Below are positions 5,391-43,508 of a DNA stretch of 64,000 nt, one piece after another (the first letter of the stretch is position 1; the number at the start of each line of letters is the position of its first letter). Made by a program: the position numbers and the translations under genes. The DNA is from Amphiura filiformis (Eukaryota). A model generated the notes under the pieces. It was not told the DNA's origin, did no database searches, and saw only the letters and a program-made list of their open reading frames with translations. The stretch covers positions 58,010,946 to 58,074,945 of the forward strand of contig NC_092646.1 of the NCBI RefSeq assembly GCF_039555335.1, written 5' to 3'.

Positions 5391-5411
5391 CTTACCTGAG
5401 ACATCAATACC

Positions 5412-6916: not shown

Positions 6917-7036
6917 TGGGATTTCAAATGGGGTTTCCTGAAAGGATGACTCCATTTGAAATATCTACACCCCTGTGTGGATTAAGGTCATGTCTTCCAT
7001 AGGGGGTTTATGGATTTCAACTGGAATAGCCCAATG
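6917..7036. mobile_element. MITE family A (palindromic, about 190 bp), half copy
   Basis: The terminus is ccatagggggtttatggatttcaactggaatagcccaatg. Confidence 0.7.
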
Positions 7037-8693: not shown

Positions 8694-8884
8694 GTTATCT
8701 CTGGTCATGCCACGCTCTCCCTCATACACCTGAATCAATACTCCAGGCTGGTTATCCGAGCTGGTGGTGAATATCCGAGTCCGTTTGGTCGGGATGGTTG
8801 TGTTACGCTTGATGAGTGGTGTCATGACACCACCGGTAGTCTTGATACCAAGCGACAGAGGAGTGACATCAAGGAGAAGAAGGT
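8694..8884 (-). CDS. HSP70-family exon (substrate-binding domain)
   Basis: It encodes [64 protein letters not shown], flanked by a ttttcag acceptor and a GTAAGT donor. It is in frame and in phase with the exon at 7798. Confidence 0.75.
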
Positions 8885-10149: not shown

Positions 10150-10930
10150 CTATTTATTTATTTATTTATTTGGCTTCATACACTGGTTACAATATCAAAT
10201 AACAAAGTTAGATAAAAGATGGATAAATATATTGCACAAAGTAAAAGTATAAAAGACATATATATATACATGTGAATAAAACGCACCACGGATCCAGCAC
10301 ATGTAGGAGAGATACCAGTGTAGAGGATTGGGATGAACAGGTGCATATCACCTCTAGGACCATCCCACCTCAAGATCAAAAAATTAATTAAGACACCTAC
10401 AAATAGCACAGCTGCATCACGGAAACCCACGTACAAATGTCATGCAGCCGGCCGAAAATTTAACTCAAAATGAGAATGCAAAAAATGAACCACATTGCTT
10501 TTAAAAACAGAAAAAGATGAAGAGGACCTAACACTAAGGGGAAGCTGATTCCAAATTGGCACAATGCGGTTAAAAAAACTGGACTTAAAAGCTTCCGTTT
10601 TGCAGAAGGGGATCCTAAGGCGCAAGGTGTCACATGTTGATCTTGTGTTGGGACGGTCTTGCCCAATCTCTGACTTGTAAAACTTGACATACTTGTAGAC
10701 ATCCAGATCGTAATTGTCAGACAAGGACTTGTAAAATAAACAAATATCAAGTTGCTCTCTGAAGCGTGAGGGTAACATACCCAGATGGCACAACCGCTCC
10801 CGATAATCCAGATCAGGATAGTGCATGATGAACTTGGTAGCTCGCCTTTGAACACCTTGAGACACTGAATATTGTGTCTGGATGTACCACTCAAAGGCAG
10901 CTACCAAATTCAAGATCACTCCTGATCAAT
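10150..10930 (-). mobile_element. 3' fragment of a non-LTR (LINE) retrotransposon ending in an (AAAT)n tail
   Basis: The 159-aa ORF at 10440-10919 ends in the conserved LINE ORF2 C-terminal tail motif ...RIPFCKTEAFKSSFFNRIVPIWNQLP. An (ATTT)5 microsatellite sits at 10150-10175. Confidence 0.6.
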
Positions 10931-14146: not shown

Positions 14147-14258
14147 CTTTTTTTGGAACGGAAGCCATCTTTAATTCACAAGGCTCTTCAGGTTTGGATG
14201 GTGCACCAAATACTTTTCGATGAACTATACCGGGTGATGAAGGCTTGGCTAAAGGTAT
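14147..14258 (-). CDS. Module exon X (IPLAKPSSPGIVHRKVFGAPSKPEEPCELKMASVPKK)
   Basis: The acceptor is tattgcag| and the donor AAG|gtaact. The phase is 0 to 1. The exon and about 70 bp of flanking intron are conserved against the copy near 17.1 kb. Confidence 0.5.
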
Positions 14259-16344: not shown

Positions 16345-16460
16345 ATGAGTTTCACTTGCCAAACTCAATCCCTTTCTCATTGATCTTCTAGTTGGTTTGG
16401 GTTTTTGACGTGGCATCGCCTCATTCCGCGACATATCCAACATAACTTCTGGCATATCAT
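16345..16460 (-). CDS. Module exon Y (DDMPEVMLDMSRNEAMPRQKPKPTRRSMRKGLSLASETH)
   Basis: The acceptor is tctgttgcag| and the donor CAT|gtaagt. The phase is 1 to 0. Confidence 0.5.
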
Positions 16461-17111
16461 CTGCAACAGATAAATATGATATGATACCAATAAAGACATA
16501 ATAATAAATAACATTGGCCCAACAATTAGGCAAAAAAACAAATTGTTTGCTTGTCCATAGATTACTTTCAGAAGTTGGGTTGGTCGGTCAGTCGGGAAGA
16601 ATTTTTTTCTTGTTTTTTTTTTTTCTTATATCTATTTTTTCAAGTGTTCACTTCAAAATTTATTCAAGATATAGACTCCAAATCTGTGAAAAAAAAATAA
16701 AAATCGCAAAAAAAAATAAATAAAACAGATTTTTTAATTTTTTGGAAAATCATGGTGCGTTTTTTGGCCTCCAAAATCCTGTATTCTTAGCAGCCCTATA
16801 TTAACCGCCCATGCCCCTATAATCACCCACCCAGTGACTTTACAACAAGCAAACCGATATTAGTTTATTAACTGCCCATGCAAATCTGAATCATGGTCTG
16901 ATGCATATGACACACTGATGATAGATGAATATTTTGGGCCATTTTTACATCTTCTTGGCCTTAACAATGTAAAAAATAAGCGCCCACCCAAAATGATTTT
17001 ATTAAATGCCCTGGGCCATTAATGTAGTGTGTAGGTATATAGATTTATATCCAAGTGATGTTTGACCAATGGGATTACAGAATTCATGTCAAAAGCATGA
17101 TGAATAGTTAC

Positions 17112-17223
17112 CTTTTTTTGAAACGGAAGCCATCTTTAATTCACAAGGCTCTTGTGGCTTGGATGGTGCACCAAATACTTTTCGATGAACTATACCGGGT
17201 GATGAAGGCTTGGCTAAAGGCAT
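17112..17223 (-). CDS. Module exon X' (MPLAKPSSPGIVHRKVFGAPSKPQEPCELKMASVSKK)
   Basis: The acceptor is ttccag| and the donor AAAAAAG|gtaact. It is nearly identical to the exon at 14147-14258. The phase is 0 to 1. Confidence 0.5.
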
Positions 17224-17589
17224 CTGGAATATTAAGAATAACAGTAAGCATCATTTGATTTTGTGTGTTAGTTTGTAATGTTATGGTGTGCCTCTTCCCT
17301 TAAGCTTGTTTCTATTATATTACACGGAATTGATCTTACACGCCGGTGGACATGTGTTGTGTACTTTCTTATGAATTTGAAACTACATTTAGCACAGATT
17401 CAAGTTTAAAAAAGATACCTTTAGGCCTACTTTGCAAAAATTGGCCATTTAACATCTGTGTTACTGCTACAAAAAAGCCTTATTCTGTGTTTTAGTTCAC
17501 AAGCATGCTTACAATTGTTGTATATGAGTGCCCCCCCAAGTGTTGTTTGTAATGTACTGTCTTCTCTTACCGCTCACATCTTTAAGTAC

Positions 17590-17756: not shown

Positions 17757-18620
17757 CCATTTCATAATGGGCTATTCCAGTTGAAATCCACACTACCCCT
17801 GTGGAAGATTTTGGAAATATCATACACAGGGGGAGTATGTTTTTCAAATTTAATTGGTCAGAGTTAATGATTTTGAAACACATACTCCCCCTGTATTATG
17901 GCTTTACCGTTATCTTCCACAACTGGAGTAAGTATTTCAAATGGAAGTTACGCAATTGTTTATTCTACTAACAATTGATACTCCCTCTGTGGAAGACTTT
18001 AGCTAAATCTTCCACAGAGGGATATTAAATGGAATAGCCCAATTGAATGATAATCTTTCTGAAAAGCTTGACAAATGGGCTATTCCAGATGTATTCCGCC
18101 CCCCCTATGGAAGATATTTAAAAAAAATACAATTCCAGCTGGAATTGAGATGTGTCTAGAATTCCAGCAGTCATTTTTAGCAGAGATTCCGGCTGGAGGG
18201 TATGGAAGACATTGAGATTAGGTGAAATTCCGGCTGCTAAAATAAACGAAAAAACAAGAGTGGGGATTGTGAAAGGCCATGATGTGCCTATGGAAGACAG
18301 TCACATTTCTTAATATTCCGGCTGGAAAATGGTCAAAAATGCTCCAATTCCAGCAGAATCTTCACTTATGATCACCATCTCGATTAACCTATGAAAGACA
18401 TTTACTTGAATTCTGGCTGGAAACAAAATGTTCTAGTTCCAGGTGGAACCCTATGGAAGACATTTACATTTACGTGAATTCGCTGGCCATATTAGACATA
18501 TTACCACAATTCCGCAGTGTCCTCCATGGGTTTTTCCTGACATGTGAATTCGCTGTCAATTTAGCCCGTATTCGGAAGTGTCTTCCATAGGGGGTGCGGA
18601 ATACATCTGAATAGCCCAAT
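17757..18620. mobile_element. Cluster of MITE family A copies, including a 545-bp expanded variant at 18075-18620
   Basis: The terminal repeat gggctattccag...ccctatggaagat occurs repeatedly. The internal motif attccagctgga is iterated. Confidence 0.65.
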
Positions 18621-19308: not shown

Positions 19309-20472
19309 CTGCATCAGATAAAAATGAATATGGATATCAATTCGTCGCTGTTTTGACATACTGTCGTATGACGATTTTTGGGCAAAATGAGTTATATAAA
19401 CGTTCATAATCTGTGAATGAAACTCTATATATTCACAGTTTGAAGATCTAAATGTAATTAGTTTTAAATGAGATATGGCACTAATTAGTACGATACGACA
19501 TAATTTTTATGTAACCCCCCCCCCATCGTCATTCTGTATTTTGACATACAGTCGTATCATGATACGTTGCCATAGGCCACCGTGTAACTGTAGTTGCCTA
19601 TTGTTGTGACATACTGTCGTATCACAATGTCGTATCATTATTAATACATAGGTTTTCAAAATGTGCATATTTTGTCGTATGAGTTTGCAGATTAATTACT
19701 ACTAATTAGTAAATGAATAAACAGTTTGTATTATGTTGAGAACAAAGACAGATATATTATTGATTATATTCTTTGATAATAATAAACATATTTTACTTTG
19801 GTGCTCTTCAGTGGGTCTTCAAAAGTTGGAAAAACTTTAAATGTGATTTTCTCAAAACTGCATTTTCGTCATACGTCAAAACAGTGACGAATTACATATA
19901 TCAAGCTTTTGTAATGGAGGAAATGGCTAAAAATGGGGATTAAAGGGTCAATTTTTGGCCAAAATGACCCAAATCACTAAAAACATGCATTTTATAGTTA
20001 CCTATGAATTTCATGAGGTCATAGGTCAAAACCATAGGTCACAGATCCAAACATCCATCTTAATATAGATCAAAAATCAACTGGCGCAGGGCCACCGCTA
20101 AAATCTGTCCCTGATTGGCAATGGTATGTCCTTTGTGAATGGGAACAGAATTGAAAACAGAGTACAACATATTGCATCCCCATATCACTGCTAATGCAGG
20201 TGTCTTAAACAAAGCACAGCAACTCAACAGTTGGAATGTCTCAAAACTCCAAACTTGTGACTTAACGCTCATTTGTGGGAGCGGGTCACATATTTGCAGC
20301 TACTGAATTTTTACGTACCAAAATACCAGACTCCCAGGTAAAGAAAGGTAGTATCTGCTATATAATATTATTAGCAGTTACTGCATTATTGCTTATGATG
20401 GCATTTAGTGCTCACCTGACGAAGGCTTTGGTGAAGAAGTTGCTAAATTCTCGGTACCACCAGCATCTGCAG

Positions 20473-20772
20473 CTAGTTGAGCATCCTTTTGTTTGGTTGA
20501 ATCTGTTCCTTTGTCAGAGCAATATGCCAATGTCCCGGACTGTGACAGCTCTCCCCACCGTGTACTCGATGTTGCGGGAGGTCCTTTAATAGGTTCTGGG
20601 GCAGATCTAATAAGGCTTGTTTCGTTGGCATGGAAGCTGATGTAGATTTTTTTTCAAATGTAGATCCAAACAATCCTGCTGTATCTGATGCATTCAGTGG
20701 TAGCAATGGAGCTTCCCCACCAAATCTTCCAGCGAAGCCAAATCCTCCTGAACTTGACATGGAAACTGGCAT
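20473..20772 (-). CDS. Probable continuation of the FG-repeat coding region in the +1 frame (GGFGFAGRFGG...AGLFGSTFEKK...)
   Basis: This ORF is contiguous with E6 and in frame once the 1-bp indel at about 20900 is removed. Its FG-type composition matches the upstream repeats. Confidence 0.35.
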   Translation of the reverse strand: MPVSMSSSGGFGFAGRFGGEAPLLPLNASDTAGLFGSTFEKKSTSASMPTKQALLDLPQNLLKDLPQHRVHGGESCHSPGHWHIALTKEQIQPNKRMLN

Positions 20773-20881
20773 TGATCTCCCTCTAAAACCTTGCTGTTGT
20801 TGTTGTTGTTGGGCAGCTCCAAACAGACTTGCTCCACTTGGTTCAATGGTCTTACGCTGTGCAGCTCCAAAAAGACTTGGT

Positions 20882-21584
20882 TCAGTTGGTTTTCCAAAAC
20901 CTTTTTCTACTTAATCGAGGCTGTGTAACTCCAAACAGACTTGCTCCACTTGGTTCTTCTATGGTCTTACGCTGTGCAGCTCCAAAAAGACTTGGTTCAG
21001 TTGGTTTTCCAAAACCTTTTTCTACTAATCGAGGCTGTGTAACTCCAAACAGACTTGCTCCACTTGGTTCTTCTATGGTCTTACGCTGTGCAGCTCCAAA
21101 CAGACTTGCTCCAGTTGGTTCTTCTGCAGTTGGTTTTCCAAGACCTCCAGCATACTCAGCATCAAGTCGACTGCCCATTGCAGATCCAAACAAATCCCCA
21201 GCATGCGGTGGCAACGATAGAGGTTGAGCTACAGTATCAGGAACATATGTTGGCAACGACATTGTCAACATAGCTGAAGCTAGGATATCACCTGTTGGGA
21301 AGCTAAATCCTGGAGGGGGTGGTGGAGGAGATGCACCACCAAGTTGCGGAGGCGGTGAGGGTGGGAGGCCAAATCCTGGAGGTGGATGAGGTGGAGGTGC
21401 ACCATCAACTGACAGAGTCTTTCTCCTGAGGTCTGGTGGTGGTGGAGGGCCAGCTCCTTGAGATGGGGGTGGTGGGGGTGGGATTCTGTGTTCAATGGGG
21501 CCTTTCAGGGTCAGAATACCTCTTTTACTCTTGGCCTCATGACCAACGTAGCAATCTTTCTGCCCCATGCCGACCATCACTCCC
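20882..21584 (-). CDS. Exon E6: actin-like continuation ([32 protein letters not shown]), then polyproline, then SLFG/FG repeats; terminated by an apparent frameshift
   Basis: The acceptor ctgcag|GGA resumes the actin sequence exactly after RHQ. A 232-aa ORF follows, with roughly 120-bp tandem coding repeats at 20817-21130 whose last copy carries a 1-bp insertion. Confidence 0.55.
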
Positions 21585-22367
21585 TGCAGTAATTATAAAA
21601 CGGAAAAGGAAAAAGATGGGTTCAGAAAAAGTGATAAATAGAGATTAAAAAAAAAAAGCACACACACCAAAATCCGGTTTATTTTCCCCACCTGGGGTGT
21701 TTAACCGTACAGAGCTTGAACTTGAACAAAAAGAAGGGAGTAAAAATCAAAATATTGAACACTTCATGTTGCAAAAATGTCAACAGTAGCTGATGGCTAT
21801 GCACCGGCTTGGGCAGTCTTTTATAGTTCGCAGTTTTTGAAGGCACCCGTTTTCTTAACGGCGTGGTAGGTAGGACACCCTCGCCGATAGGAAGTTGAGC
21901 GATGGCGCACGACCAAAGTCACAAGGGTATGATTCCATTAGTCTGACACGATATGAGCTGTAAGTTATTCAGTCGTCATAACACACATAACATGCACAGT
22001 TGTAGACTAGACTGCTGCCCTCAGTCGTCAACCGTCTGGATTGACGACTGAGAAAACTACGTGGAAAAAAAGTGACGGATTTTGCAACAGGATTCCTGTG
22101 GCATAGAGCATGCGCAGTTGTGTCCAAATTGACCTTTTGACCGAGTTTGTTGTTTTTAGAAGTTCAGAGCGCGATCTTGTCACAGCGGCGCGGTACAGCG
22201 ACGCGATACACGGGCGCCGCTAGTCAGTCGCGCTACGGCGCACAACCAAAGTCGCATTGCATAGTTTTCGGAAGTCCGTCATGATATTGGCTGTAAGATA
22301 ATCAGTCGTCACTACGAAGCACAGTATGCGAAGTGTAGACGGCTGATTGGAATTAGTCTAGTTGTAG

Positions 22368-23268
22368 ACGACAAAGGTTGCAGTCTAGCAAAAAGGTAGA
22401 TTGGGCTAATCCACTTGTAATCCACACTCCCCCCATGGAGATTGTCTTCTACAGGGGGAGTATGAATTTCAAATGGAATGAACACATTAGGCAGCTCCAT
22501 TTGAATTTCATACACCCTCTGAGTAAGATTCAACCTGAATCTTCCACAGTGAGTTTCAAATAAAAGAAGTTAATGTGCTAATTCCAAATTTTTTGGGTTT
22601 TTTTAAATTGTCTGCAAGATACATGTACAGGTATGGCTCTCTGTACAAAAGACAGACGACTTAACGTCCCCTCCAAAGGATGGTGTACTTTCATGATTCA
22701 TTTACCCAATTCTAAATAAACCATGGGGAGAGCGGAAGTCTGAATTTAATCTACAGAATTTGCCAATTAATTTCAGACTTTTTTTTCCAAGTCAATATCC
22801 CAGCAAATCGCCACCGCCGGGTTGCAGTCTAGCAAAAAGGTAGATTGGGCTAATCCAGTTGTAATCCACACTCCCCCCATGGAGATTGTCTTCTACAGGG
22901 GGAGTATGAATTTCAAATGGAATGAACACATTAGGCAGCTCCATTTGAATTTCATACACCCTCTGAGTAAGATTCAACCTGAATCTTCCACAGTGAGTTT
23001 CAAATAAAAGAAGTTAATGTGCTAATTCCAAATTTTTTTTTGTTTGGAAATTGTCTGAGAGATACATGTACAGGTATGGCTCTCTGTACAAAAGACCGAC
23101 TACTTAACATCCCCTCCAAAGGATGGTGTACTTTCATGACTCATTTACCTAATTCTAAATGAAGCATGGGCAGAGTGTAAATCTGAATTCAATCTACAAT
23201 GGTTGTCAATGAATTTCATATATTTTTCCCCAAGTCAATATCCCAGCAAATCTCCACCACCAGGAATT
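22368..23268. repeat. Two tandem copies of a 445-bp composite unit (MITE-A copy plus SINE body)
   Basis: 22395-22560 and 22845-23003 are near-identical MITE-A copies, as shown by the duplicated ORFs MQSSKKVDWANP.../MNLTQRVYEIQ.... Confidence 0.8.
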
Positions 23269-23345
23269 GAACATGGGACCTCATGTACTAAAGGCAAGTA
23301 CTCTAATCTAACCATTAGGCCATGCTCTCCCTACAAGACATGCAG
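23040..23345 (-). mobile_element. tRNA-derived SINE (family 1) with a tRNA-like head at 23269-23340
   Basis: The reverse complement reads GGGAGAGCATGGCCTAATGGTTAG...GGTCCCATGTTCAATTCCTGG. The same head recurs at 63903-64000 on the plus strand, and its 3' part at 48.5-48.85 kb. Confidence 0.6.
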
Positions 23346-23396
23346 TGGAGTCACTACTAAACTCAAAACGACATAGGGAATAGTTTTATTGCAAGC

Positions 23397-25464
<2,068 letters not shown>

Positions 25465-25670
25465 CTGGTGTCTTGGTCGACCTACTATACTAGGGAAAAC
25501 TACCCTAGGTGCATCGTCACCAGCAAACCCTGCCTTGGTCGTATCAAGCCCAAGGTCAATAACCACCACTGCTACATCTTCATCGTCAGGTGATAGCTCT
25601 TCCATTACTGTTATAGGTGGTGGCGGTGGTGGTGCAGGAATGTCAGGTGGTATTCCAGAGGATGCCAAAT
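25465..25670 (-). CDS. Exon E5: proline-rich linker plus actin-like N-terminal segment ([69 protein letters not shown])
   Basis: [24 protein letters not shown] is the actin N-terminal signature. The donor CAG|gtaagt falls exactly at the conserved actin codon-41 intron position. The acceptor is tcttcatctag|. Confidence 0.6.
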
Positions 25671-25917
25671 CTAGATGAAGATAGAGAAATGGTGGCTGAA
25701 TTAAACTGATAAAAATTGTCAACTACAAAAGTGTAATTTTCATATGTGTATAGACCACTTGACATGTGACGTCATTGCCTGGCAGTATGCGCACAAATTA
25801 TGGCAAAATCTTTCATCCATGCTATGTTAAAAGTGCTAGATAAGTCTCTATTATTATTACCATCATTATCATTGACATTGTTATTACCATTATCATTATT
25901 ATCAAATCACACTTTAC

Positions 25918-25979
25918 CTTCATGGAAGTACAATCTCAAAGCTTCTACAAGATTTGGGCACTTTTGCTCCTTTGAAATC
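25918..25979 (-). CDS. Exon E4 (RISKEQKCPNLVEALRLYFHEG)
   Basis: The acceptor is tgtcaatag|G and the donor GAAG|gtaaag. The phases chain correctly to E3 and E5. Confidence 0.5.
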
Positions 25980-26619
25980 CTATTGACAAAATAAAAAGAA
26001 CACCAATACCATAATTTAAAAGTTGTAATTGTACAGAGTATAGTGGGAAGTATGACCTTATGGTTAGGCACTATTGAAACTGCAGAGTACCGCTGGGAAA
26101 CTATACAATTGATAATACCACTGAAATATAGCAACAAACAGAGTTATTTCGTTATCATGTTAATACCTAATCGCACTGACACATGAGTGGTCATTCATTA
26201 TCAGTGTTCGAATTAAGGAAAAATAATTAGTTGTCCCACGGACAACCAGGTTACAATTTCTGGTTGTCCGTCTAAGTTTTTGGTTGTCCGTATATTACCA
26301 GCTAAAAGATACACATACAAAGGTGAGTTTTGGCTACACATTTATGGTTGTCCGGCGGACAACCGAATCAGTATTTTTGGTTGTCCGGCGACTTTTTTAG
26401 TTGTCCCGGGCAACCGGACAACCAAAATTTCGAACACTGTTCATTATCCCACTGAAATGGTGCTATTAAAGCACACTGAAATGTATTAGACCATGCTATT
26501 GTTATGAAAATTAATCCATGGACAGCAGCCACACTGAAAATTACATTGAAAATATACCCACTGAAAATACTCAGAGTAACGCTGTGAAAATGGTAGGGTA
26601 CTTGCCTTTGGTGCATAAT

Positions 26620-27190
26620 AATGTCACGGAGGTATAAGTGCGTTAGTGTTATAGACCTGACGGGGAAGTCCTCTTTTGGTCTATACGCTAGTGCGCTCGC
26701 CTCTTAAACCCAGGGTCGTGGGTTCGAGTCCCGGCAGGACCGGAAGTGGCTCGAGGAGGCGCAGGATATTTCCGCGAGGGGTTTGTGACATAAATGGTGG
26801 TAGCGGTGGTCCCTGGTGTTTCTTAACACCAGGGGGACCACCCATCGGAAAGGGTTAGGCGTTCATAAAAATGGCTGGCCGAGTATGCCTTGTATCAAGG
26901 GCGACCAGTCTGGCCGAGTATGCCTTGTATCAAGGACGACCAGTTTAAACAGAGGAAGTAAGGCGCGAGGAAGAGGAAGTAAGGCGCGAGGACGCGGCTT
27001 ACGAGGAGGGGGGAGCATGTCACGGAGGTATAAGTGCGTTAGTGTTATAGACCTGACGGGGTAAGTCCTCTTTTGGTCTATACGCTAGCGCCTTCGCCTC
27101 TTAAACCCAGGGTCGTGGGTTCGAGTCCCGGCAGGACCGGAAGTGGCTCGAGGAGGCGCAGGATATATCCGTGAGTGGTTTGTGACAATA
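26620..27190 (+). repeat. Tandem duplication (about 395-bp unit) containing a tRNA-like sequence; copies at 26665-26790 and 27060-27185
   Basis: The sequence is ggtctatacgctagtgcgctcgcctcttaaacccagggtcgtgggttcgagtcccggcaggacc with a B-box GGTTCGAGTCC. I could not fold it into a canonical cloverleaf. Confidence 0.5.
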
Positions 27191-27342
27191 ACACTATGAA
27201 AGTTTGACACTGAAAATCACACTGAAAACCATTTTCAGCATTACTCTAGCCATTTCCATTGTTACACTGGGTATTTTCAGTGTGGCTATTGTCAAAGGAT
27301 ATAACAATAGCATTTAAGCCCTAGGATGCTAAATTTATTTAC

Positions 27343-27409
27343 CTTCTGAAGAAAATCTTCACATCCTCCTGAAAATCATCATCAAGTTTGTCCTCCATGT
27401 CACCATAAT
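27343..27409 (-). CDS. Exon E3 (NYGDMEDKLDDDFQEDVKIFFRR)
   Basis: The acceptor is ctcaatag|ATT and the donor CAGAAG|gtaaat. It is open only in the phase dictated by E2. Confidence 0.5.
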
Positions 27410-28398
27410 CTATTGAGAAAAGGAAAGAATTAATTATAAAGTGTTCACAGTGGCTCACAAAATGTATATACCATATTTGTCCAAGTATTATTAGCCCCAC
27501 CCCTTTTTTAGGTGAAAAAATTCTAAAATTGGGGGAGTAGGATTATACAAGAATTTTTTTCAAAAATGTTTTTTTTTTATTTTAATTTTTGGGTTTTTTC
27601 TTTTCAGATTTGGAGTGTCCTTAGACCTAGAGCTAAATGCTAGAATCATTTGTGGTTGACCTAAAAAAAAATAATAAATAAACATTTTGTGTCTTCAATA
27701 TTGTAAATTAATAATTTATATTCATTTCACACTCTATTAATGATTTCAAACTGGATACAAATCCAATGCATTTTGAAATCATTAATAGATTACGAGGTGA
27801 ACACAAATTATAACTTTGCATATTGAAAACATGTTGCATTTTGCAAAATCAACCATGAATTTCCTTGTCAGTGAGAAGAACAAACCGTATCCTGTATTCA
27901 TACACTCTTCGATAGCGAGAACCAATCAGAGCAAGCGTTAGAAAAATCCAAACCATGCATTGATTGTGTCTAATTGCACTCCAGCATTACTACTGGCGCA
28001 GTGTTTCGTCTTGGCGTTCAGCGTCGCGTAGGATTGATTCATTTTTCGGGCGGGTTGATGCATTTACATTTGGTTCTATTTTCCAATATTTTTAGTGATA
28101 ATTTTGTTATAAAAAAAGTAAAAATCATGTGTTTTTTTCTTCTCGTGTATGAAATAGGTTAATGAACTTGTATTACTTGTTGCTCGAGAAATTAGACAAA
28201 ATAATGCACTTGTGCTGATGTTGTGTCTAATGCACTCCCCCTTCGGGGCTCGTGCATTAGACGCATCAACATCAGCGCGTGCATTATTTTGTCCAATTTA
28301 TCTCCCAACAAGTAATACGCGTTCATTAACCTATAATTACGGCCTAATAATTAAAACTTGCAATTTTTGCTTGTAGAACTGGGCAAGGTATTCCTATT

Positions 28399-28592
28399 GG
28401 GCTAGCTATAGTCCAGTTGAAATTATACATCCCCTATGGAAGACATTACCTTAATCTCCAACACAGGGGGTGTATGTTTTAAATGGAGTCACTCATTCAG
28501 GTAACCCCATTTGAAATTCACACTCCCTGTGTAGAAGATTAAGGTCATGTCTTCCATAGGGGGTGTATGGATTTCAGCTGGAATAGCCCAAT
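28399..28592. mobile_element. MITE family A, complete copy
   Basis: The arms gtccagttgaaattatacatcccctatggaagacattaccttaatct...agattaaggtcatgtcttccatagggggtgtatggatttcagctggaatagccc are inverted complements. Confidence 0.8.
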
Positions 28593-28639
28593 AAGCCCTC
28601 AACTGTAGTAATGTTGATAGAAAGCAAAATTATACTTTT

Positions 28640-28920
28640 TACGCTACTCAAATTTCACTCACCGGAGCGCTTTCACCGGGTCAACCGGCGTCTTCAGCAG
28701 ATGTTATTGCTCTGAAGATTTGTTGTTGCTAGTGATATTTGGAACAACCTCCTGACTCCCGGAACCAAGGGGGCGCCACAATATCTTCAAGTTTGATGTC
28801 ATCTACATCTGTGACGTCATCGGAGGTCTCTCAATAACATCAATAGCAACAACAAATCTTCAGAGCAAGAACATCCGCTGAAGATGCCGGTTGACCTGTT
28901 GAAAGTGCTCCGTGAGTGAA
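28640..28920. repeat. About 280-bp palindrome
   Basis: ctcaaatttcactcaccggagcgctttcaccgg... is inverted against ...ccggttgacctgttgaaagtgctccgtgagtgaaatttgag. Confidence 0.75.
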
Positions 28921-29087
28921 ATTTGAGTATAATTTTGTTTTCTATTTACGTTTATCGCACGTATGAATACACATCATTATGTAGTAATGTTGTAGAGTAT
29001 TCCCAGTGCTGCCAACAAAGGGGGAAAGGTCCAGGGGTGCTGTTTCAATTTACACCAGATTCATTGTGGATGGTCATACATACTTAC

Positions 29088-29175
29088 TTTCTAATGACCC
29101 AACATCAAATATCTCTTCTACCTTCCCTGGGTGATCTTGGATGTCATAGAAGAATTTGGCAGCATTCACCAAGGC
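29088..29175 (-). CDS. Exon E2 (ALVNAAKFFYDIQDHPGKVEEIFDVGSLE)
   Basis: The acceptor is cttacag|GCC and the donor GAAA|gtaagt. The phase is 0 to 1, compatible with E1 and E3. Confidence 0.5.
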
Positions 29176-29235
29176 CTGTAAGAATTAAGTAATATATGAA
29201 GATATGATTCAATTGCCCCAGGTGGTGGCCGCATT

Positions 29236-32200
29236 GCATTCTCTAAATTCAGTAAATTTTCATCATCAACCGTGTAATTGAATGGGATTATTTTGAAATT
29301 TTAAAACGCTTGAAATATCACAAACAAATAGGCCTATGTTGATAAATAATATAAATACAAGCTAAAACCGTTGGGGTTCGATAATGAACCCCACAAAACT
29401 AAACGACTATATTGAAAATGCCATACGGCCGGGCGGTTTCACAAGTTGCCGGCTCGATCATGTCATCCGCCGCCTGAATTGCCCCTTCATGTCAGTAATC
29501 ACAGCAGCTGAAAGGACTATCCCATTATGCTTTGCGGTGTCATACAAACTGTACACAAAATCATCCCTCTCTTCAACTTTCAATCACTCGCTTAAATCTT
29601 TGTTTGAAAAGATATGACACTATCCATAGCTCTCAATATTTAAGCAGCTCTTACTTATGTTTTGTATGCATTTGCTATGGACCAAGCAGATCTACTGCAA
29701 TGCATGATGGGATACTCCCTTCAGCTGCTGTGGTCAGTAACCATGGACGAAAGAGTTAACAGACCGCATACAACCAGTCAAAGTTCCTGTGTATTGTATG
29801 CTGTGAGTTCTCGCATATTCATGAGGGCCGATTGTTCAATCGTGCCTTGTCTAACAATCACGCCAGCATTGCGTGCCTTCGCGTATACGCGATATAGCGA
29901 CAGAGCATTGCGTGCTTTAGCAATTACGCGTTATACCGTAAAAATAATCCAAAAGTGCGTAGCAGTCTCGCCTGTCGCATTTTATTGAACAATCGGCCCT
30001 CATTATCGGGTGATGCTGAGACTTTGACTGATTGTACGCAGTAATATCTCTTTTGTCCATTAAGTGAAGAGCTCTAGGGGCAGAGCCTAGGGCAGTGGCT
30101 AGAACAAGATATACAAAAAAAACCACAGCTATTGCTCAATTTAAGGGCTGGGGTATGAAGCGTTTGGACAGTATTTATTTTGGGACATCAGAGCATCAGA
30201 CATATCGCATTGCACTCTGAACACGAAGAATGTCATTCTGATATCAAATAATTTTGATTTTTTGAAATTCCCAATTTAATACACATTTTATGGCAAATCA
30301 TTAAAAATTGATATTTTTGATATTTAACAGTACTTGAAGTAAACTTTATAAATCTGATGATTTATACTTAAAAAGTGTATGTAGGTGGGATGAAAAGCCG
30401 ACGATCAATTGAAAATTTTGACCTTTCAGTATTGAAGATATGGATTTTTTTCCCAAAACACAAAAAAAAATTAGGTCTTTTTGGGAAAAAAATCCATATC
30501 TTCAATATGAAAGGTCAAAATTTTCAATTGACCATCCGCTTTTCCTTCCTGCTACATACACTTTAAGAATATATCATTAGATTTATATAATTTACTTCGA
30601 GGACTGTTATATATCAAAAATTTGAAAAATATCAAATTTTTATAATTTGTCATAAAATTTGTATTATATTGTGATTTTCAAAAATGAAAATTATTTGATA
30701 TCAGAAAGACATGCTTCAGATTCGAATGCAATTCGATAGGTCTGAGGTGCTCTCATGTCCCACAAAAAATACTGTCGAAACCCAATAAACGCTCATTTTA
30801 GATCCCTTAAGGGGGTACTACACCCATTGATTTTTTTTTGCATTTTTTTGCATTTTGTGAAGAAATTACAAAAAAAAACTGGACAAAGTGGTATGCAAAA
30901 TGAAGGGGCAAATCTTCTCGTTTTATTGGTGGCATCGGTATCAATGTAGCTTACATGCTTTTGAAGATAGAAGCCAAAAGGAGGTACATCACTGATGATT
31001 TAAATTCACTTCATTTTGGAAAGCTTACTATCAACGAATTTCGTTAAAATTTTGGATATGTGTTGCTAACACATTAGGGAAATAATGTTGATATGTAAAA
31101 TGGGAATAAGTGGTCCCTGATTTCTTTTATGACTTCATGAACTTGGTGCTCCACAACTATCAAAAAAACGAACCGGTTAAAATGCTTCTATTTTCAATGT
31201 CGAGCTATATTTTGTATTTTGAACTTGCAACACTATGTCACTGAAACTTAATTAAGCCATAGGTAACAGGTTACCACAACCACACTACAGCAATGTTGAA
31301 AAAGATTGTATTTTTTGTCACCTATACCACCATATTAGGTAGTTTTCCGTAAGCTTCATTTTTGTGATTTTGGTAACTATTTTATATTTATTTGCCCAAT
31401 CCAACTCAACTAGGCAATCTAAATTGTACTCACCATTTACATCCCAAGGTATTTTAGCATATCCACCTCACACATTTCCATTATATATCCAGTAACAGAC
31501 AAAATATCAAAATTGATGCCTCATTATGACATGTATGATATCACAGACTATCACATGTATTCAAAATTGATGCCTGAATTTGACCAGAACCAATTGACCT
31601 ATAACCTGACCTTTGATGACCTTATAGCCTTTTTTAATCTCTTTTCCTAACAACATATTATAGAAGATACATACATGGTGTAGTGTTAATTGTCTATGTG
31701 GAAGAGATTATTTAGGCCTATTTAATTTATTCAGTGTTATAATCAGTGAGTATATTTCTATAGATAGTATAACAAAGGATTTAATGTATTCTATTCATGT
31801 ATTCTACTTGGACATGTTCAATAGAATATATTATGGTTTGTTATGAAACATACATCTCAGTTACCAGGATACAGTAAACAACAAAATATATAGGGCTAAA
31901 ATGATTTTCTAAAATGGTCTAATACCACTTTGTATGTAGAGATATTTTATAAATTCAGGACATGAGATGATGAACATATAAATATACTTTATAAATTTGC
32001 AATAAAAAAAAGAAGATGGGTACTGATGAAAATCAGGGTATTAAATCGCCTTAAGCAATTATTTTTGATAAAATTTGTGAAATATGCCTTTTTCATCTGA
32101 ATTTTTACACATTATTCCATTTGCTCACTATATCATTTTCAATTTCCTTTGTGAGTAGACCTGAGATGTCATCACTGGACGTCACCTCGATACGCAAATC

Positions 32201-32575
32201 GTTACTGCGCACTTCACAGCTTTGAAATGCACAGTAGGGATGTTCACTAAACGATGTGCGTATCGGCGTGACATCAACTGTCGCAAAGGCTTATGGGATT
32301 TATCGAAAAAGAAAATTCCAGTTGAAATCCATACACCGCCCAGGCGGCGGATGACATGATTGAGCCGACAACTCGTGAAACCGCCCGGCCGTATGGCATT
32401 TTCCATATACTAGGTTAGTTTTGTGGGGTTCATTATCGAACCCCAGCGGTTTTAGCTTGTATTTATATTATTTATCAACATAGGCCTATTTGTTTGGGAT
32501 ATTTCAAGCGTTTTAAAATTTCAAAATAATCCCATTCAATTACACGGTTGACGATGAAAATTTACTGAATTTATG
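29236..32575. mobile_element. About 3.3-kb segment bounded by roughly 250-bp inverted duplications; foldback B (30141-30811) lies inside
   Basis: 29240-29480 on the plus strand matches 32300-32570 on the minus strand. The duplicated ORFs both encode ...ENAIRPGGFTSCRL(D/N)HVIRRL.... Confidence 0.55.
30141..30811. mobile_element. Foldback family B, second copy
   Basis: It is about 95% similar to the copy at 23397-24066. Confidence 0.8.
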
Positions 32576-32600
32576 GACTGCACGTCATACACCACCTGAC

Positions 32601-32876
32601 ACCGCCTATGAATTACATGACCTTAATCTTCCACAGGGGGTGTAGATTCAAATGGAGTCACCCATCCAGGTAACCCCATTTGAAATTCACACTCCCTGTG
32701 TGGGAGATTAAGGTCATGTCTTCCATAGGGGGTGTATGAATTTCAACTGGAATAGTCCATTTAAGAACAGACGACACTGAATGGGAGACTCCATTTGAAA
32801 TTCACACTCCCTGTGTGGGAGATTAAGGTCATGTCTTCCACAGGGGGTGTATGAATTTCAACTGGAATAGTCCATT
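32601..32876. mobile_element. MITE family A, 1.5 tandem copies
   Basis: Same consensus; the unit is duplicated internally. Confidence 0.75.
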
Positions 32877-33493
32877 CTAAAAAGGTTGAGAATGACTTCT
32901 CTAATATTTTTGCTACAAATCAAATCATATCGATCCATCAATATAGACTTTATTTCCATAAATCAAATTACATATCACGAGTAAAAAGACACCAAAAATT
33001 TCACTATTTTTGAAGAAAATATTTGACCAATTCAACCAAATATAGTTGATAACAGTCTTTTTTTTTTTTTTTTAAGTAAAATGCTAGAGTTAACAATAGC
33101 CCATGAGAATGACACAAGTCAAGAACTTATATAGGCACCTATGCACTATAAAAGACAACCACATGGGCCAGTCAGTGGTTCACAGCAGCTTAGGAACCAC
33201 AAGAGTGAAGGAGTACAGTAAAGCATCAGACAGACACAAGTAATAAGATGCTTATAGTGCATGAAGGATGGTGCACCATTGTCAGATATGTCTCTGACCA
33301 CTCCATCTGGTAGGCTATTGCTATGTCCGGTATATTCATCAATCTTCCGTGTGAATTTAGCAATATTCGGACTGAAACTGACAAAGCTAAAACATACATA
33401 CAACATATATCCCTATTTATAGTAAGATACAAGACAACAGTGATTGTGCAAGAGCAATCCAGTGGCCTTAATGAGGCTAGCAGCGACTGCCCT

Positions 33494-33771
33494 TGGGCTA
33501 TTCCAGTTGAATCCATACACCCCCTATGGAAGACATGACTTTAATCTTCCACACAGGGGGTATGAATTTCAAATGGGGCTACCTGAATGGGTGACTCCAG
33601 TTGAAATCCATACACCCCTATGGAAGACATGACATTAATCTTCCACACAGGGAGTGTGAATTTCAAATGGGGTTACCTGAATGGGTGAATCCATATGAAA
33701 TCTACACCCCCTGTGTGGATGATTATGGTTATGTCTTCCATAGGGTGTATGGATTTCAGTTGGAATAGCCC
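33494..33771. mobile_element. MITE family A, 1.5 copies
   Basis: It runs from gggctattccagttgaatccatacaccccctatggaagacatgac to catagggtgtatggatttcagttggaatagccc. Confidence 0.75.
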
Positions 33772-33789
33772 TTTTTGAACTAATCATAC

Positions 33790-33936
33790 CTTGAAATAGA
33801 GAGGATCATCATTGCTACAATTGTCTTTTGCAAACTCTAGAGCCTCTTCATAGTATCGCTGAGCAGACATGATGGAGAAAGTCTCCTCTTTATGTGCCTT
33901 TTGGAGTAAGTCTTGCACAGTTTCTTCAGGGGAGAT
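33790..33936 (-). CDS. Exon E1 of a multi-exon gene (ISPEETVQDLLQKAHKEETFSIMSAQRYYEEALEFAKDNCSNDDPLYFK); it may contain the start codon
   Basis: The acceptor is ccttcctttttcag| and the donor AAG|gtatga. The exon is 147 bp, phase 0 at both ends, with an open frame. Confidence 0.5.
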
Positions 33937-34329
33937 CTGAAAAAGGAAGGGAACAAAATTTAGGTTTTCCCCAATGAGGTAGAATCAAAGAGTACCAACT
34001 CTGCCACGTTTGCGTGTCGCTCATGGAGGCGGATTACTTCGCTATTCGCCCAGCAAACGATCCAAAGTGGGTGCTTGTTCACGTTCTGTATGTAACATGT
34101 TGTTCAAAAACACGATCCAAGCACTGTGTAGACAAACCTTAGTAACAAAAGATGCAAATTTGTTGTTCAATTTCGGCCCTCTCTCGATGAATGCAGGAGG
34201 TACGTTATCTACCCTCCATGATGAGCACCAAACCAAGATGGTGGACTTACATGTAGCATTACATATGGTACAATTTTGAGTCAGTAAACTTTAGTATCTT
34301 TGGTTTGTCCACATGTATAGGTCTATGTA

Positions 34330-37060
34330 TTTATACTTACTTCCAGGGTCTGTGATTGTCCAGGAGGACTCTTGGTTGGTTCCCATCCCATATAGGTATG
34401 TGTATCAATACTTACTTCTAGGGTCTGTGGTTGTCCAGGAGGACTCTTGGTTGGTTCCCATCCCATGTGGGTATGTATATTATCAATACTTACTTCTAGG
34501 GTCTGTGGTTGTCCAGGAGGACTCTTGGTTGGTTCCCATCCCATGTGGGTATGTATATTATCAATACTTACTTCTAGGGTCTGTGGTTGTCCAGAAGGAC
34601 TCTTGGTTGGTTCCCATCCCATATAGGTATGTGTATCAATACTTACTTCTAGGGTCTGTGGTTGTCCAGGAGGACTCTTCATTGGTTCCCATCCCATGTG
34701 GGTATGTATATTATCAATACTTACTTCCAGGGTCTGTGGCTGTCCAGGAGGACTCTTCGTTGGTTCCCATCCCATGTGGGTATGTATATTATCAATACTT
34801 ACTTCTAGGGTCTGTGGTGGTCCAGGAGGACTCTTCATTGGTTCCCATCCCATGTGGGTATGTATATTATCAATACTTACTTCTAGGGTCTGTGGTTGTC
34901 CAGGAGGACTCTTGGTTGGTTCCCATCCCATGTAGGTGTGTGTATCAATACTTACTTCTAGGGTCAGTGGTTGTCCAGGAGGACTCTTGGTTGGTTCCCA
35001 TCCCATGTAGGTATGTGTATCAATACTTACTTCTAGGGTCTGTGGTTGTCCAGGAGGACTCTTGGTTGGTTCCCATCCCATGTAGGTATGTGTATCAATA
35101 CTTACTTCTAGGGTCTGTGGTTGTCCAGGAGGACTCTTGGTTGGTTCCCATCCCATGTGGGTATGTATATTATCAATACTTACTTCTAGGGTCTGTGGTT
35201 GTCCAGGAGGACTCTTGGTTGGTTCCCATCCCATATAGGTATGTGTATCAATACTTACTTCTAGGGTCTGTGGTTGTCCAGGAGGACTCTTGGTTGGTTC
35301 CCATCCCATGTAGGTGTGTGTATCAATACTTACTTCTAGGGTCCGTGGTTGTCCAGGAGGACTCTTGGTTGGTTCCCATCCCATGTAGGTGTGTGTATCA
35401 ATACTTACTTCTAGGGTCTGTGGTTGTCCAGGAGGACTCTTCGTTGGTTCCCATCCCATGTGGGTATGTATATTATCAATACTTACTTCTAGGGTCTGTG
35501 GTTGTCCAGGAGGACTCTTCGTTGGTTCCCATCCCATATAGGTATGTGTATCAATACTTACTTCTAGGGTCTGTGGTTGTCCAGGAGGACTCTTGGTTGG
35601 TTCCCATCCCATGTAGGTATGTGTATCAATACTTACTTCTAGGGTCTGTGGTTGTCCAGGAGGACTCTTGGTTGGTTCCCATCCCATATAGGTATGTGTA
35701 TCAATACTTACTTCTAGGGTCTGTGGTTGTCCAGGAGGACTCTTCGTTGGTTCCCATCCCATGTGGGTATATGTATTTAGAGAATAAGCGATAGGAATTT
35801 TTATTTTGCCTATCCTCTACCGTGTGATAGGCGACAGGCAGGTCCAATATTTTGAGTAGTGGATGCCGCGCAGCCGGTATCCACTACGATAAAAATATTG
35901 GACCTGCCTGTCGCTCATCATAGGTAGAGGATAGGCAAAATAAAAATTCCTATCGCTTATTCTCATTCAGTTAAATATTATTTTAATAACTGTAAACAAT
36001 TTTTTTAAAGTAAAAACTAAGTTACCGTCATAAAAACTCCCCTCATTATAAAATGAACGAAACTGGTTTACAACTTCACGTATTCTCATTTTATGCAGTA
36101 CTGCTAGCGCGCTTTTGCGTATTCCGCACTAGTCTACGCATCCAGCGCGATACATACGCCGCATCTCTACACGCGTGTTACGCATTATCCAGACGCATGA
36201 TGACGTGGGGTCGCTCTCACGGCCTGATAGACGGCACCGAAATCATGCGATTGTCTAATCAGAAATGTGTCTACGAACTAGACCACTCCCACTGACTAAG
36301 AAATTATCAATACTTACTTCTAGGGTCAGTGGTTGTCCAGGAGGACTCTTGGTTGGTTCCCATCCCATATAGGTATGTGTATCAATACTTACTTCTAGGG
36401 TCTGTGGTTGTCCAGGAGGACTCTTGGTTGGTTCCCATCCCATATAGGTATGTGTATCAATACTTACTTCTAGGGTCTGTGGTTGTCCAGGAGGACTCTT
36501 CGTTGGTTCCCATCCCATATAGGTATGTGTATCAATACTTACTTCTAGGGTCTGTGGTTGTCCAGGAGGACTCTTCGTTGGTTCCCATCCCATGTAGGTA
36601 TGTGTATCAATACTTACTTCTAGGGTCTGTGGTTGTCCAGGAGGACTCTTCGTTGGTTCCCATCCCATGTAGGAGTGTGTATCAATACTTACTTCTAGGG
36701 TCTGTGGTTGTCCAGGAGGACTCTTCGTTGGTTCCCATCCCATGTAGGGGTGTGTATCAATACTTACTTCTAGGGTCTGTGGTTGTCCAGGAGGACTCTT
36801 CGTTGGTTCCCATCCCATGTAGGAGTGTGTATCAATACTTACTTCTAGGGTCTGTGGTTGTCCAGGAGGACTCTTGGTTGGTTCCCATCCCATGTGGGTA
36901 TGTATATTATCAATACTTACTTCTAGGGTATGTGGTTGTCCAGGAGGACTCTTTGTTGGTTCCCATCCCATATAGGTATGTGCATCAATACTTACTTCTA
37001 GGGTCTGTGGTTGTCCAGGAGGACTCTTGGTTGGTTCCCATCCCATATAAGTCAATGTAT
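34330..37060. repeat. Satellite B: 75/78-bp unit x about 30, in two blocks (34330-35785 and 36300-37060)
   Basis: The unit is tacttacttctagggtctgtggttgtccaggaggactcttggttggttcccatcccat(a/g)t(a/g)ggtatgt(gt)atcaa. ORFs are open on both strands (493 aa on the plus strand, 479 aa and 320 aa on the minus strand). Confidence 0.9.
35780..35964. repeat. 185-bp near-perfect palindrome interrupting satellite B
   Basis: agagaataagcgataggaatttttattttgcctatcctctac ... gtagaggataggcaaaataaaaattcctatcgcttattctc; centre at about 35872. Confidence 0.85.
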
Positions 37061-37237
37061 CAATCTCTTCTTTTCTCAGCAGCTCTTCTATGTCTACTGC
37101 TTTCATCTCCTTTTTGTCTTCGTCCTTCATAAATAACAATAAGAGTATGATAATAATGAAAACTATTATTATAGACAGTTTGTATTCTTTGGAGCATTTG
37201 CTTGATGATGAAAGCACTCATATGGCAACATGCAATG

Positions 37238-42399: not shown

Positions 42400-42705
42400 A
42401 AATGTAACCTGCTACCACGAAATGAGCATAAAGTCGCAAGTTGCTATTTTCAAGACATCCTGGCTACGTATACTGCGTTGATATTCTTTGTTTCACACAC
42501 ACCTGTTCAAGCCAATAGCATGTCTGTATGTCATTGGTGAATGGAGGCACATGGGGCCATTCACAAAGGACATACTACTGGCTTGTACAGGTGCGTGGCA
42601 AATTAAGAACATCAACTCAGCAGCCAGGATGTCTCAAAACTAGCATCTTGCAACTTTACACTCATTCTGTGGTAGCAGGTCACATATTTGATTCCATACC
42701 TTGTC
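42400..42705. mobile_element. Small TIR element (family C; TIR CAAATATGTGACCTGCTACCAC) beginning exactly at the donor of the exon at 42700
   Basis: The inverted arms lie at 42408-42480 and 42625-42700. A partial paralogue lies at 20090-20292. Confidence 0.5.
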
Positions 42706-42882
42706 TCTCGTTTCCACGGCAACAAAACTAGTGAATTGTGTCACAATTGAGTACTCTTTACTCAACTCGATTATGTAGTTTTTCTGCTCCGTTTTCTTCA
42801 CTTCATGTTCTGTTCGGTTGACATCAAGCGTTCCATCCTCCCAGTCTCTTATGATGGCACGTGCTGTCAGCTGATGCAGCAT
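42700..42882 (-). CDS. VWA5A/ITIH-like C-terminal exon (MLHQLTARAIIRDWEDGTLDVNRTEHEVKKTEQKNYIIELSKEYSIVTQFTSFVAVETRDK)
   Basis: The LSKEYSIVTQFTSFVAVE motif is typical of the VWA5A/ITIH C-terminal region. The acceptor is ttgtag| and the donor AAG|gtatgg. The exon is 183 bp, phase 0. Confidence 0.55.
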
Positions 42883-43427: not shown

Positions 43428-43508
43428 CTTGCCTTCAGTGATACTGAGGTCATGAGTAGATACCATAGTTGAGACTTCCTTCCCAGCAATCATTGCTTTC
43501 AGTGTTGC
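43428..43508 (-). CDS. Probable C-terminal exon of a VWA5A-like gene (ATLKAMIAGKEVSTMVSTHDLSITEGK)
   Basis: The acceptor is ttttacag| and the donor AAG|gtaggt. The exon is 81 bp, phase 0 to 0. Confidence 0.45.

Follow-up and report, generated by a model that had tools for sequence, protein, structure and literature searches.

What is a fragment of actin doing in the middle of a gene in the brittle star Amphiura filiformis? The fragment lies in a stretch of 64,000 nucleotides (nt) from contig NC_092646.1 (positions 58,010,946 to 58,074,945), here called the window, which is eukaryotic DNA with a G+C content of about 38%, rich in minisatellites and short transposons. An initial annotation had read six minus-strand exons, E1 to E6, as an exon-shuffled chimera that fuses unique N-terminal exons to a segment built on the 5' exons of actin. 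The core observation of E1-E6 is real and far above chance. However, the six exons are the middle and 3' part of a large minus-strand gene that covers at least 63384-20473 and probably reaches down to about 5400. Sequence comparison makes it very probable that this gene encodes a PARP4-like (vault-PARP, clade 5) protein. Its parts are ordered as a vWA domain, a 'YMGWE' linker, a partial 14-3-3-like module (E1-E3/E4), poly-Pro, actin residues 1-74 (E5/E6) and a disordered poly-Pro/SLFG region. Further 3' there is probably a remnant of the actin C-terminus, possibly a fragment of an HSP70 substrate-binding domain and probably a PARP4 MINT-type C-terminus. Window positions are used throughout, and relatives are coded L001-L008 (loci) and P0257-P0281 (proteins).

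The six exons are placed as follows.

33790-33936, minus strand: E1, 147 nt, the start of the 14-3-3-like module; the L004 ortholog is at 16352-16498.
29088-29175, minus strand: E2, 88 nt, in which the 14-3-3-like module continues; the L004 ortholog is at 18507-18593.
27343-27409, minus strand: E3, 67 nt, like the last 14-3-3 helix (LDDDFQEDVKIFFRR).
25918-25979, minus strand: E4, 62 nt, a short linker exon called from AG/GT borders and phase alone.
25465-25670, minus strand: E5, 206 nt, with poly-Pro, an acidic stretch and actin residues ~1-41, DLGLD replacing DNGSG.
20912-21583, minus strand: E6 in frame 0, with actin residues 42-74 (21482-21583), poly-Pro (about 21310-21480) and the first SLFG repeats.
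20473-20911, minus strand: continuation of E6 in frame +1, with the last SLFG repeat, poly-Q, GFGFAG.. and a stop at 20473.

Much of what had been said about these exons was correct. The AG acceptors and GT donors are canonical, and the codon phases chain as described, with lengths of 147, 88, 67, 62 and 206 nt fitting exactly. E5 and E6 together are actin-derived (Pfam Actin, E=3.4e-15, profile positions 2-67), the replacement of DNGSG by DLGLD is confirmed, the Pro runs after PIEH are present as P5-P7 and the tandem SLFG repeat is there in 2.7 copies of 114 nt (38 amino acids). The intron between E5 and E6 falls at actin codon 41/42, between RHQ and GVM, a position used by many animal actin genes. 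That the product would be neither a canonical actin nor an Arp is also borne out; it is an actin-derived segment inside a non-actin protein. Other parts of the model have to be given up. E1 is not an N-terminus, as it begins at an acceptor and has no start codon. E6 is not a single reading frame to 20473 either, as one additional A near 20911 brings frame 0 to a stop at 20882. E4 is the least certain exon, and it is required for frame continuity.

Nor do the six exons form a gene of their own, because five exons from the vWA domain onward splice in frame into E1 without a stop.

63126-63384, minus strand: vWA-domain exon, the first exon of the gene visible in the window; AG/GT borders, 91% identity to the L004 exon.
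62451-62721, minus strand: second vWA-region exon; AG/GT borders, 61% identical to L002.
43428-43508, minus strand: conserved exon (ATLKAMIAGKEVSTMVSTHDLSITEGK); AG/GT borders, colinear matches in L002, L004 and P0274-P0281.
42700-42882, minus strand: conserved exon (LHQLTARAIIRDWEDG...FTSFVAVETRDK) from the typical post-vWA region of PARP4/VWA5A proteins.
36996-37124, minus strand: 'YMGWE' exon (DEDKKEMKAVDIEELLRKEEIDTLTYMGWEPTKSPPGQPQTLE), phase 0 at both ends, splicing to E1.

Across the 11 exons from 63384 to 20912, all with AG/GT borders, the gene frame is free of stops, and the two alternative frames contain 44 and 52. The joined upstream exons score above the cut-off for VWA_3 (Pfam E=5.9e-7), and as a whole query their best named matches are PARP4-like proteins of the crinoid Anneissia japonica (64%) and of Lingula (62%). 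Taken exon by exon, they are 59-80% identical to the Anneissia protein. The lowest figure belongs to the exon at 63126-63384, where the ratio of non-synonymous to synonymous substitution (Ka/Ks) is ~0.02, and the highest to the exon at 42700-42882, which is 94% identical to L004 with a Ka/Ks of 0.03. Homologs of the YMGWE exon are found in P0278, P0280, L002 and L004, and in P0280 the YMGWE peptide continues directly into an E1 homolog ('..AEISPEQ..').

E1-E4 had been described as unique. They appear instead to encode a 14-3-3-like module in the same reading frame as the vWA exons. The ~55 best PDB matches of the module are all 14-3-3 proteins, aligned over residues 142-218 with E ~0.02; the match covers just the last third of 14-3-3, and the alignment runs across the E1/E2/E3 junctions. 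With 34.8 bits, the part of P0280 homologous to it scores above the Pfam 14-3-3 cut-off of 33.2. A closer relative, L004 (exon amino-acid identity 82-94%), carries VIT (PF08487/PF13757), vWA and YMGWE exons followed by orthologs of E1, E2 and E3 in the same order. For E3 the colinear match in L004 is weak (19887-19964), and L008 has a 26-residue 14-3-3 stretch at the same place. Between L004 and the window the introns are unalignable and Ks is saturated, with a Ka of 0.24-0.25 for E1/E2 against 0.03-0.10 for the vWA exons. Because the orthologs are colinear, the introns cannot be aligned, Ks is saturated and Ka is low, E1-E3 are taken to be conserved coding exons of a VIT-vWA gene.

What, then, of the actin segment itself? 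A tblastn search with full actin gives 77.5% identity over residues 3-42 and 85.7% over residues 42-76, and beyond residues 3-76 it found in the window just an 11-residue C-terminal remnant (E ~3). About 20% of the four-subdomain, ~375-residue actin fold is present, and subdomains 3, 4 and most of 1 are absent. In place of phosphate loop 1 (DNGSG) there is DLGLD in the window and DTGMD, DIGMD or ELGAW in relatives. When actin is aligned with seven family members, 38 columns are invariant. These are concentrated in residues 35-67 and include a 16-residue block and SKRGILTL, essentially the whole of subdomain 2 with the D-loop. All 38 are intact in the window copy, which is also the most actin-like (67%, against 52-56% in the other members). 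The window has a derived loop, G-x-D-T-x-K where actin has GSGMCK, and so do L008, P0278/L005, L002 and L003; the two L001 copies have ELGAW instead. In all members the similarity to actin ends at one point, just past residue 70. Since the derived loop and the end point are shared, a single ancient origin of the module is indicated. The poly-Pro/acidic/'IDxGxDTxKAG' layout of E5 is common to L008.

Actin 1-74 is best described, on this alignment, as an old conserved module of the family that has lost the ATP loop and kept subdomain 2 and the D-loop nearly as invariant as in actin. The module is predicted to be incapable of ATP binding, of forming the actin fold and of polymerisation, and the subdomain-2 face appears to be under actin-like constraint. 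A processed actin pseudogene is ruled out by the retained intron at codon 41/42 and by the conservation and transcription of the module in relatives. As to gene structure, an intron after 'DTVK' is present in L002 and L003 and absent in the window (25465-25670 compared with L002 9780-9959).

When the whole conceptual protein was run against a set of 5.8 billion proteins, actins and mis-annotated tandem actins swamped the results and no ortholog was found. With the E6 open reading frame (ORF) as query, an exhaustive HMMER search gave no match below 1e-30 and nothing related to the poly-Pro/FG part. The same search exposed the family, via P0257 and short 'GILTLxSPFER' ORFs: its members are non-actin proteins in which actin residues ~19-70 are preserved and the sequence diverges thereafter. 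L002 carries, on one strand, PARP catalytic (PF00644), VIT, vWA, YMGWE and helical exons, then an exon ending 'IIDTGMDTVK', a separate 69-nt exon and a further actin exon ending 'GILTLSSPFQRR', and in its 3' part poly-Pro exons with WH2-like motifs and a DGSW exon. Its conserved exons (vWA, YMGWE, actin) are in the order of the window. Intron-free, transcript-like contigs from Joint Genome Institute (JGI) samples show the same joins. The P0278/L005 contig joins the vWA tail, YMTWE, a helical region and 'IDTGMDTVKAGYSGDD..RPRHR' (Pfam Actin E=6.8e-10 for P0278). The L008 contig joins vWA, the 14-3-3 region, 'PPCPPPPPP..DEEEAVIIDTGMDTVKAG..' and actin 1-70, with the codon 41/42 junction spliced. 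The same module and order thus recur in P0278, L008, L002 and L003. After the actin piece L002 and L003 have poly-Pro, a WH2-like 'LLxxIRxG..LK' and an acidic stretch with Trp; the WH2 match in L002 is weak (E=0.068). A MINT-type C-terminus lies downstream in three genomic relatives.

One locus departs from this order. In L001 the actin module stands behind a different N-terminal region, without vWA or 14-3-3 exons. There are four tandem intronless ORFs at 584-10888 (396-721 amino acids), each with an N-terminal helical part, actin 1-70 and a variable disordered region; three of the four have a MINT-type C-terminus and the fourth (P0257) ends 'GPSIVHRKVFG'. L001 has the appearance of a short form of the family that was retro-copied and amplified locally.

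Two further features of the relatives may be recorded here. The motif 'EE(D/E)MG[FY]GLFD', like the tail of ribosomal stalk P proteins, follows the poly-Pro/WH2-like/acidic-Trp region in L002 (11827-11853) and L003 (15060-15086). L003 also has, 3' of its PARP4-like gene and on the same strand, ORFs at 16703-17269 and 19579-19923 that by eye resemble ZU5/UPA and death domains. PIDD1 has this ZU5/UPA and death domain set. A 2026 paper ties human PARP4 to PIDD1 (PMC13127586).

The combination of domains has been seen before. PARP4-like VIT and vWA proteins with an appended 14-3-3 domain were recorded in amoebae, Capsaspora, Branchiostoma floridae and Strongylocentrotus purpuratus, and some PARP4-like proteins were noted to have an additional C-terminal domain, e.g., actin (Perina et al., 2014, DNA Repair 23:4-16; PMC4245714). 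The window gene is therefore not a newly shuffled actin chimera, since its domain combination is already in the literature. It shares with these clade 5 proteins the order vWA, 14-3-3-like, actin-like, and its nearest named proteins are PARP4-like. What that paper gives, however, is a SMART/Pfam list, silent on the limit at actin residue 74 and the lost ATP loop, and equally on the partial nature of the 14-3-3 match, the flanking poly-Pro/FG linkers and the MINT-type end (PMC4245714). Tandem exon-junction arrays, and possibly an HSP70 fragment, are what the window contributes beyond that list. A full-text literature search found no other paper on this PARP4-like/14-3-3/actin architecture, which appears to be known as a domain list and otherwise unstudied. 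A preprint on 'tinkering loci' deals with Drosophila and has no bearing on it.

Human PARP4 has, to our knowledge, neither a 14-3-3-like nor an actin-derived module. It resembles the window protein in a homologous post-vWA region, in the C-terminal domain and in a long, disordered, Pro-rich stretch between vWA and MINT. Its parts are BRCT, PARP catalytic, VIT and vWA domains, the disordered region and a MINT domain that binds the major vault protein (PMC12280208). Compared with actin and the Arps, the window protein has residues 1-74 at 77-86% identity, the codon 41/42 intron and possibly a C-terminal SIVHRKCF remnant, but only ~20% of the fold and DLGLD in phosphate loop 1. A parallel is POTE-actin of primates, an expressed chimera that consists of a whole actin retrogene and an unrelated protein. 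That fusion is recent, whereas here it concerns the first 74 residues, keeps an actin intron and is old and widespread.

In the region that follows the actin module, SLFG is a recent 114-nt tandem repeat whose copies are 95% identical. The initial annotation had likened the poly-Pro runs to FH1-like or profilin-binding tracts. By Pfam, Nucleoporin_FG scores above its cut-off (37.1 against 32.2 bits), and there is no FH2 or WH2 match. Runs of P5-P7 lie on both sides of the actin piece, which recalls formin FH1 regions and WASP-family proteins, as do the WH2-like and acidic/Trp motifs of L002 and L003. The difference is that the window has SLFG repeats where those proteins have FH2 or WH2 domains. 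A formin is rejected, since neither domain is found in the window, and so is an FG nucleoporin, since there is no anchoring domain and the repeats sit inside a PARP4-like protein. Past the stop of frame 0, FG-like sequence runs without a stop in frame +1 to 20473, and the 1-nt insertion responsible stems from a mutation of very recent date or else from an error in the assembly.

Two tandem arrays sit exactly at exon-intron junctions of the gene.

24062-25538, minus strand: 170-nt array (Tandem Repeats Finder (TRF), 8.7 copies, 93% matches; nine copies listed).
34316-36995, minus strand: 75-nt minisatellite of ~35 copies (TRF and sequence).

The 170-nt unit consists of the last 69 nt of E5 (23 residues), GTAAGT and ~96 nt of intron. 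The first of the copies forms the end of E5 and was the one copy that the initial annotation had used; the other eight lie in the E5-E6 intron. Copies 1 and 8 have the same sequence. In L002 and L003 the 69-nt unit stands by itself as an exon with exactly these limits. The 75-nt unit is made up of the last ~50 nt of the YMGWE exon, a GTAAGT donor and the first intron bases; it is single copy in L004 and has no AG acceptor, and therefore its copies cannot be separate exons. As an observation apart, the 75-nt array is open in the gene frame for hundreds of codons. Because the 75-nt units lack an AG, and the 170-nt units have a weak 'cccaag' acceptor and one stop, both arrays are taken as intronic. 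Most likely both are minisatellites born from duplicated exon-intron junctions, and the normal splice would probably run from E5 (25465) to E6 (21583). The differences between array copies, being mostly synonymous and patchy, also hint at gene conversion from a true actin gene.

What if the eight extra 69-nt copies are used after all, as 23-residue protein repeats or as mutually exclusive alternatives? Each copy is a multiple of 3, preceded by AG and followed by GTAAGT, the free-standing exon in L002 and L003 is a precedent, and the variation shared between copies is mostly at third positions (8 of the 12 variable exon sites across the nine copies). However, the acceptor 'ctgaattgcccaag' is weak beside every other acceptor in the gene (A at -3, a poor pyrimidine tract), copy 3 has an in-frame TGA and copy 7 two Pro-to-Ser changes. 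In addition, the exon part of the array is more diverged than the intron part (7.0% against 3.7%), the opposite of what selection on exons would produce, and L002, L003, L005 and L008 have one copy each, no array being found in the relatives examined. Use of the extra copies is improbable. A more radical possibility is that E5, E6 and the 170-nt array are all untranslated debris of an actin gene lying in an intron of the PARP4-like gene. The nine tandem copies, one with a stop, would fit, as would the frameshift in E6, the minisatellite-rich genome and the singleton changes of the array copies, which are mostly non-synonymous. Debris would not be expected to keep the E5 frame open from poly-Pro through actin with a stop-free chain to E6, nor all 38 invariant columns, nor an E5 layout shared with L008, and relatives express the same module in spliced transcripts. 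It is hard to give this explanation any real weight. The least credible explanation is the original one, a stand-alone, lineage-specific gene from a recent shuffle of novel N-terminal exons with the 5' exons of actin. It can draw on the phase chain of E1-E6, on a word-based protein search with E1-E4 alone that found no relative and on the codon 41/42 intron, which points to genomic DNA and not a processed mRNA copy as the source of the actin part. Against it stand the acceptor where E1 should have a start codon, the five vWA-side exons that join in frame, the E1-E3 orthologs behind VIT and vWA exons in L004, and the relatives' transcript contigs that join vWA, 14-3-3 and actin. The same truncated module, with the same loop and end point, is moreover present in distant relatives, and the combination was on record in 2014. 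It is supported, then, that E1-E6 are neither a separate transcript nor a decayed pseudogene.

A fourth alternative leaves the PARP4-like gene as it is and concerns the purpose of its pieces. By analogy with the integrated decoys of plant immune receptors, the actin, 14-3-3 and possibly HSP70 pieces might be decoys for pathogen toxins or enzymes, mounted on a PARP4-like sensor or effector. The protein contains incomplete copies of at least two cytosolic proteins of high abundance (14-3-3 and actin), HSP70 substrate-binding exons lie on the same strand in compatible phase, and 'EEMGFGLFD' in L002 and L003 resembles the tail of a ribosomal stalk protein. Several enzymes and toxins that modify actin are known to act on the D-loop, and PARP4 is reportedly among the rapidly evolving PARP genes. 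Rapid evolution of PARP genes is the subject of one paper, going by its title (PMC4038475). Then again, near-invariance of the module over long times equally fits a conserved partner, the HSP70 exons are in no relative and their inclusion in the gene is putative, and the toxin ADP-ribosylation sites lie outside the fragment (R177 and T148 are the known ones on actin). The decoy explanation is very unlikely on balance.

The 3' end of the PARP4-like gene is represented by candidate exons whose membership is graded one by one.

17112-17223, minus strand: candidate exon PLAKPSSPGIVHRKVFGAPSKPQEP.., a remnant of the actin C-terminus SGPSIVHRKCF; its membership in the gene is putative.
14147-14258, minus strand: second copy of this IVHRKVF exon, 93% identical over 154 nt.
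8694-8884, minus strand: HSP70 exon A, HSP70 residues 390-453, phase-compatible with the IVHRKVF exon.
7499-7798, minus strand: HSP70 exon B, residues 454-540 and 13 more, ending in phase 0 and fitting the DGSW exon.
5396-5498, minus strand: DGSW exon DGSWVFSEYLLEDLLDIQTSSVCILLQDAGIDVS, the start of a PARP4 C-terminal (MINT-like) domain.

Both 112-nt IVHRKVF copies encode '..PSSPGIVHRKVFG..' between AG/GT borders, with diverged flanks, and 'GPSIVHRKVFG' is found also in the L001 member P0257. The PSSPGIVHRKVFG exon is likely to be a remnant of the actin C-terminus and is a probable part of the gene; including both copies would break the frame. The chain of HSP70 exons A and B matches Pfam HSP70 with E=5.6e-61 and corresponds to the substrate-binding domain. 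Both exons are intact (86% and 75% identical to human HSPA8), there are no other HSP70 exons nearby, and none was found in the relatives examined. They could be a module that the gene has captured, or else an incomplete HSP70 duplicate lying within an intron. The downstream phases chain (..SVSKK|D|LLLLDV.. and ..IDVSQ|DGSW..). The exon at 5396-5498 encodes 'DGSWVFSEYLLEDLLDIQ..LQDAGIDVS', and a profile built from it and the L001-L003 C-termini has one PDB match, human PARP4 1581-1704 (E=3.1e-10), a segment that holds MINT-domain residues contacting the major vault protein (PMC12280208). It is probably part of the gene, although a search of the window found none of the remaining MINT C-terminal exons. 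A minus-strand ORF at 10440-10919, located in what would be the intron separating the IVHRKVF exons from those of HSP70, is by eye like a fragment of a retrotransposon reverse transcriptase.

How might an actin fragment without an ATP site serve such a protein? Neighbouring subunits of an actin filament meet where the D-loop and residues 61-65 of one touch the barbed-end cleft of the other. The module would present this pointed-end face (the D-loop and the 61-65 loop) and would dock in the barbed-end cleft, either of a monomer or at the end of a filament. Poly-Pro on both sides of it would recruit profilin-actin, and some relatives have WH2-like and acidic/Trp motifs in addition. In this way a PARP4-like, possibly vault-bound, protein would be tied to actin or to actin assembly. 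The mechanism is offered tentatively and is more likely to be wrong than right. More speculative still is a general scheme in which the PARP4-like proteins of many animals keep actin subdomain 2 as a 'pointed-face mimic', possibly with the last eight residues, and the one in the window has collected 14-3-3 and HSP70 pieces too, making it a bait/decoy platform or a vault adaptor for actin and chaperone clients; this we regard as unlikely.

Several points weigh against the account given here and are best taken together. The splice junctions in the window are all predicted from the DNA, and no homolog of E4 was found among the relatives. The E1-E4 peptide scores 20.8 bits on Pfam 14-3-3, below the cut-off of 33.2. 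The third SLFG unit reads 'TTAAG' where the second has 'TTAG', the 1-nt insertion near 20911. The sole strong donor downstream of the E6 stop (20416/20415) has phase 1, which the IVHRKVF exon cannot take up. A join of E6 to that exon through this donor is accordingly rejected for clashing phases, and any link between E6 and the exons 3' of it is putative. If the window gene has PARP catalytic and VIT exons, they lie beyond position 64000. The near-identity of the module to actin could be maintained by repeated gene conversion from actin genes. For docking in particular, the proposal is drawn from the conservation pattern, we know of no case in which isolated actin subdomain 2 folds or binds alone, and pattern searches of the window for WH2, RLELG and GFGLFD gave no match. 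Nevertheless, taken as a whole (PARP4-like identity, old actin module and intronic arrays), this is the best explanation of the locus, and we hold it with considerable confidence.

Large arrays of one 100-nt satellite at 44154-46622 and 59528-62383, with higher-order periods of 175, 275 and 375, inflate the intron from 62451 to 43508 to ~19 kilobases (kb); the corresponding L004 interval is ~1.5 kb. This long intron also holds a minus-strand ORF (61216-61557) that encodes a MYND zinc finger (Pfam E=5e-8) and has no counterpart in L004. The exon at 62451-62721 is undivided in the window, and a ~680-nt intron splits its counterpart in L004 (9458-10411). Two copies of a ~670-nt element (23396-24065 and 30141-30810; 87-96% identical, with inverted ends and TTAA flanks) are as expected for a piggyBac-type miniature transposon, and one of them cuts off the last unit of the 170-nt array. 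A tRNA scan of the short interspersed element (SINE)-like elements in the window found nothing.

What does the locus mean, then? There is no evidence of recent gene birth from this gene. Its two arrays neatly illustrate how the duplication of an exon may start, and for gene prediction they are a trap. The neglected feature is that a family related to vault-PARP has kept the first 74 residues of actin, with the D-loop nearly unchanged and the ATP site discarded. If the module docks on actin, ADP-ribosylation or vault biology would be linked to the cytoskeleton in invertebrates, and the module would be a natural minimal 'subdomain 2' probe.

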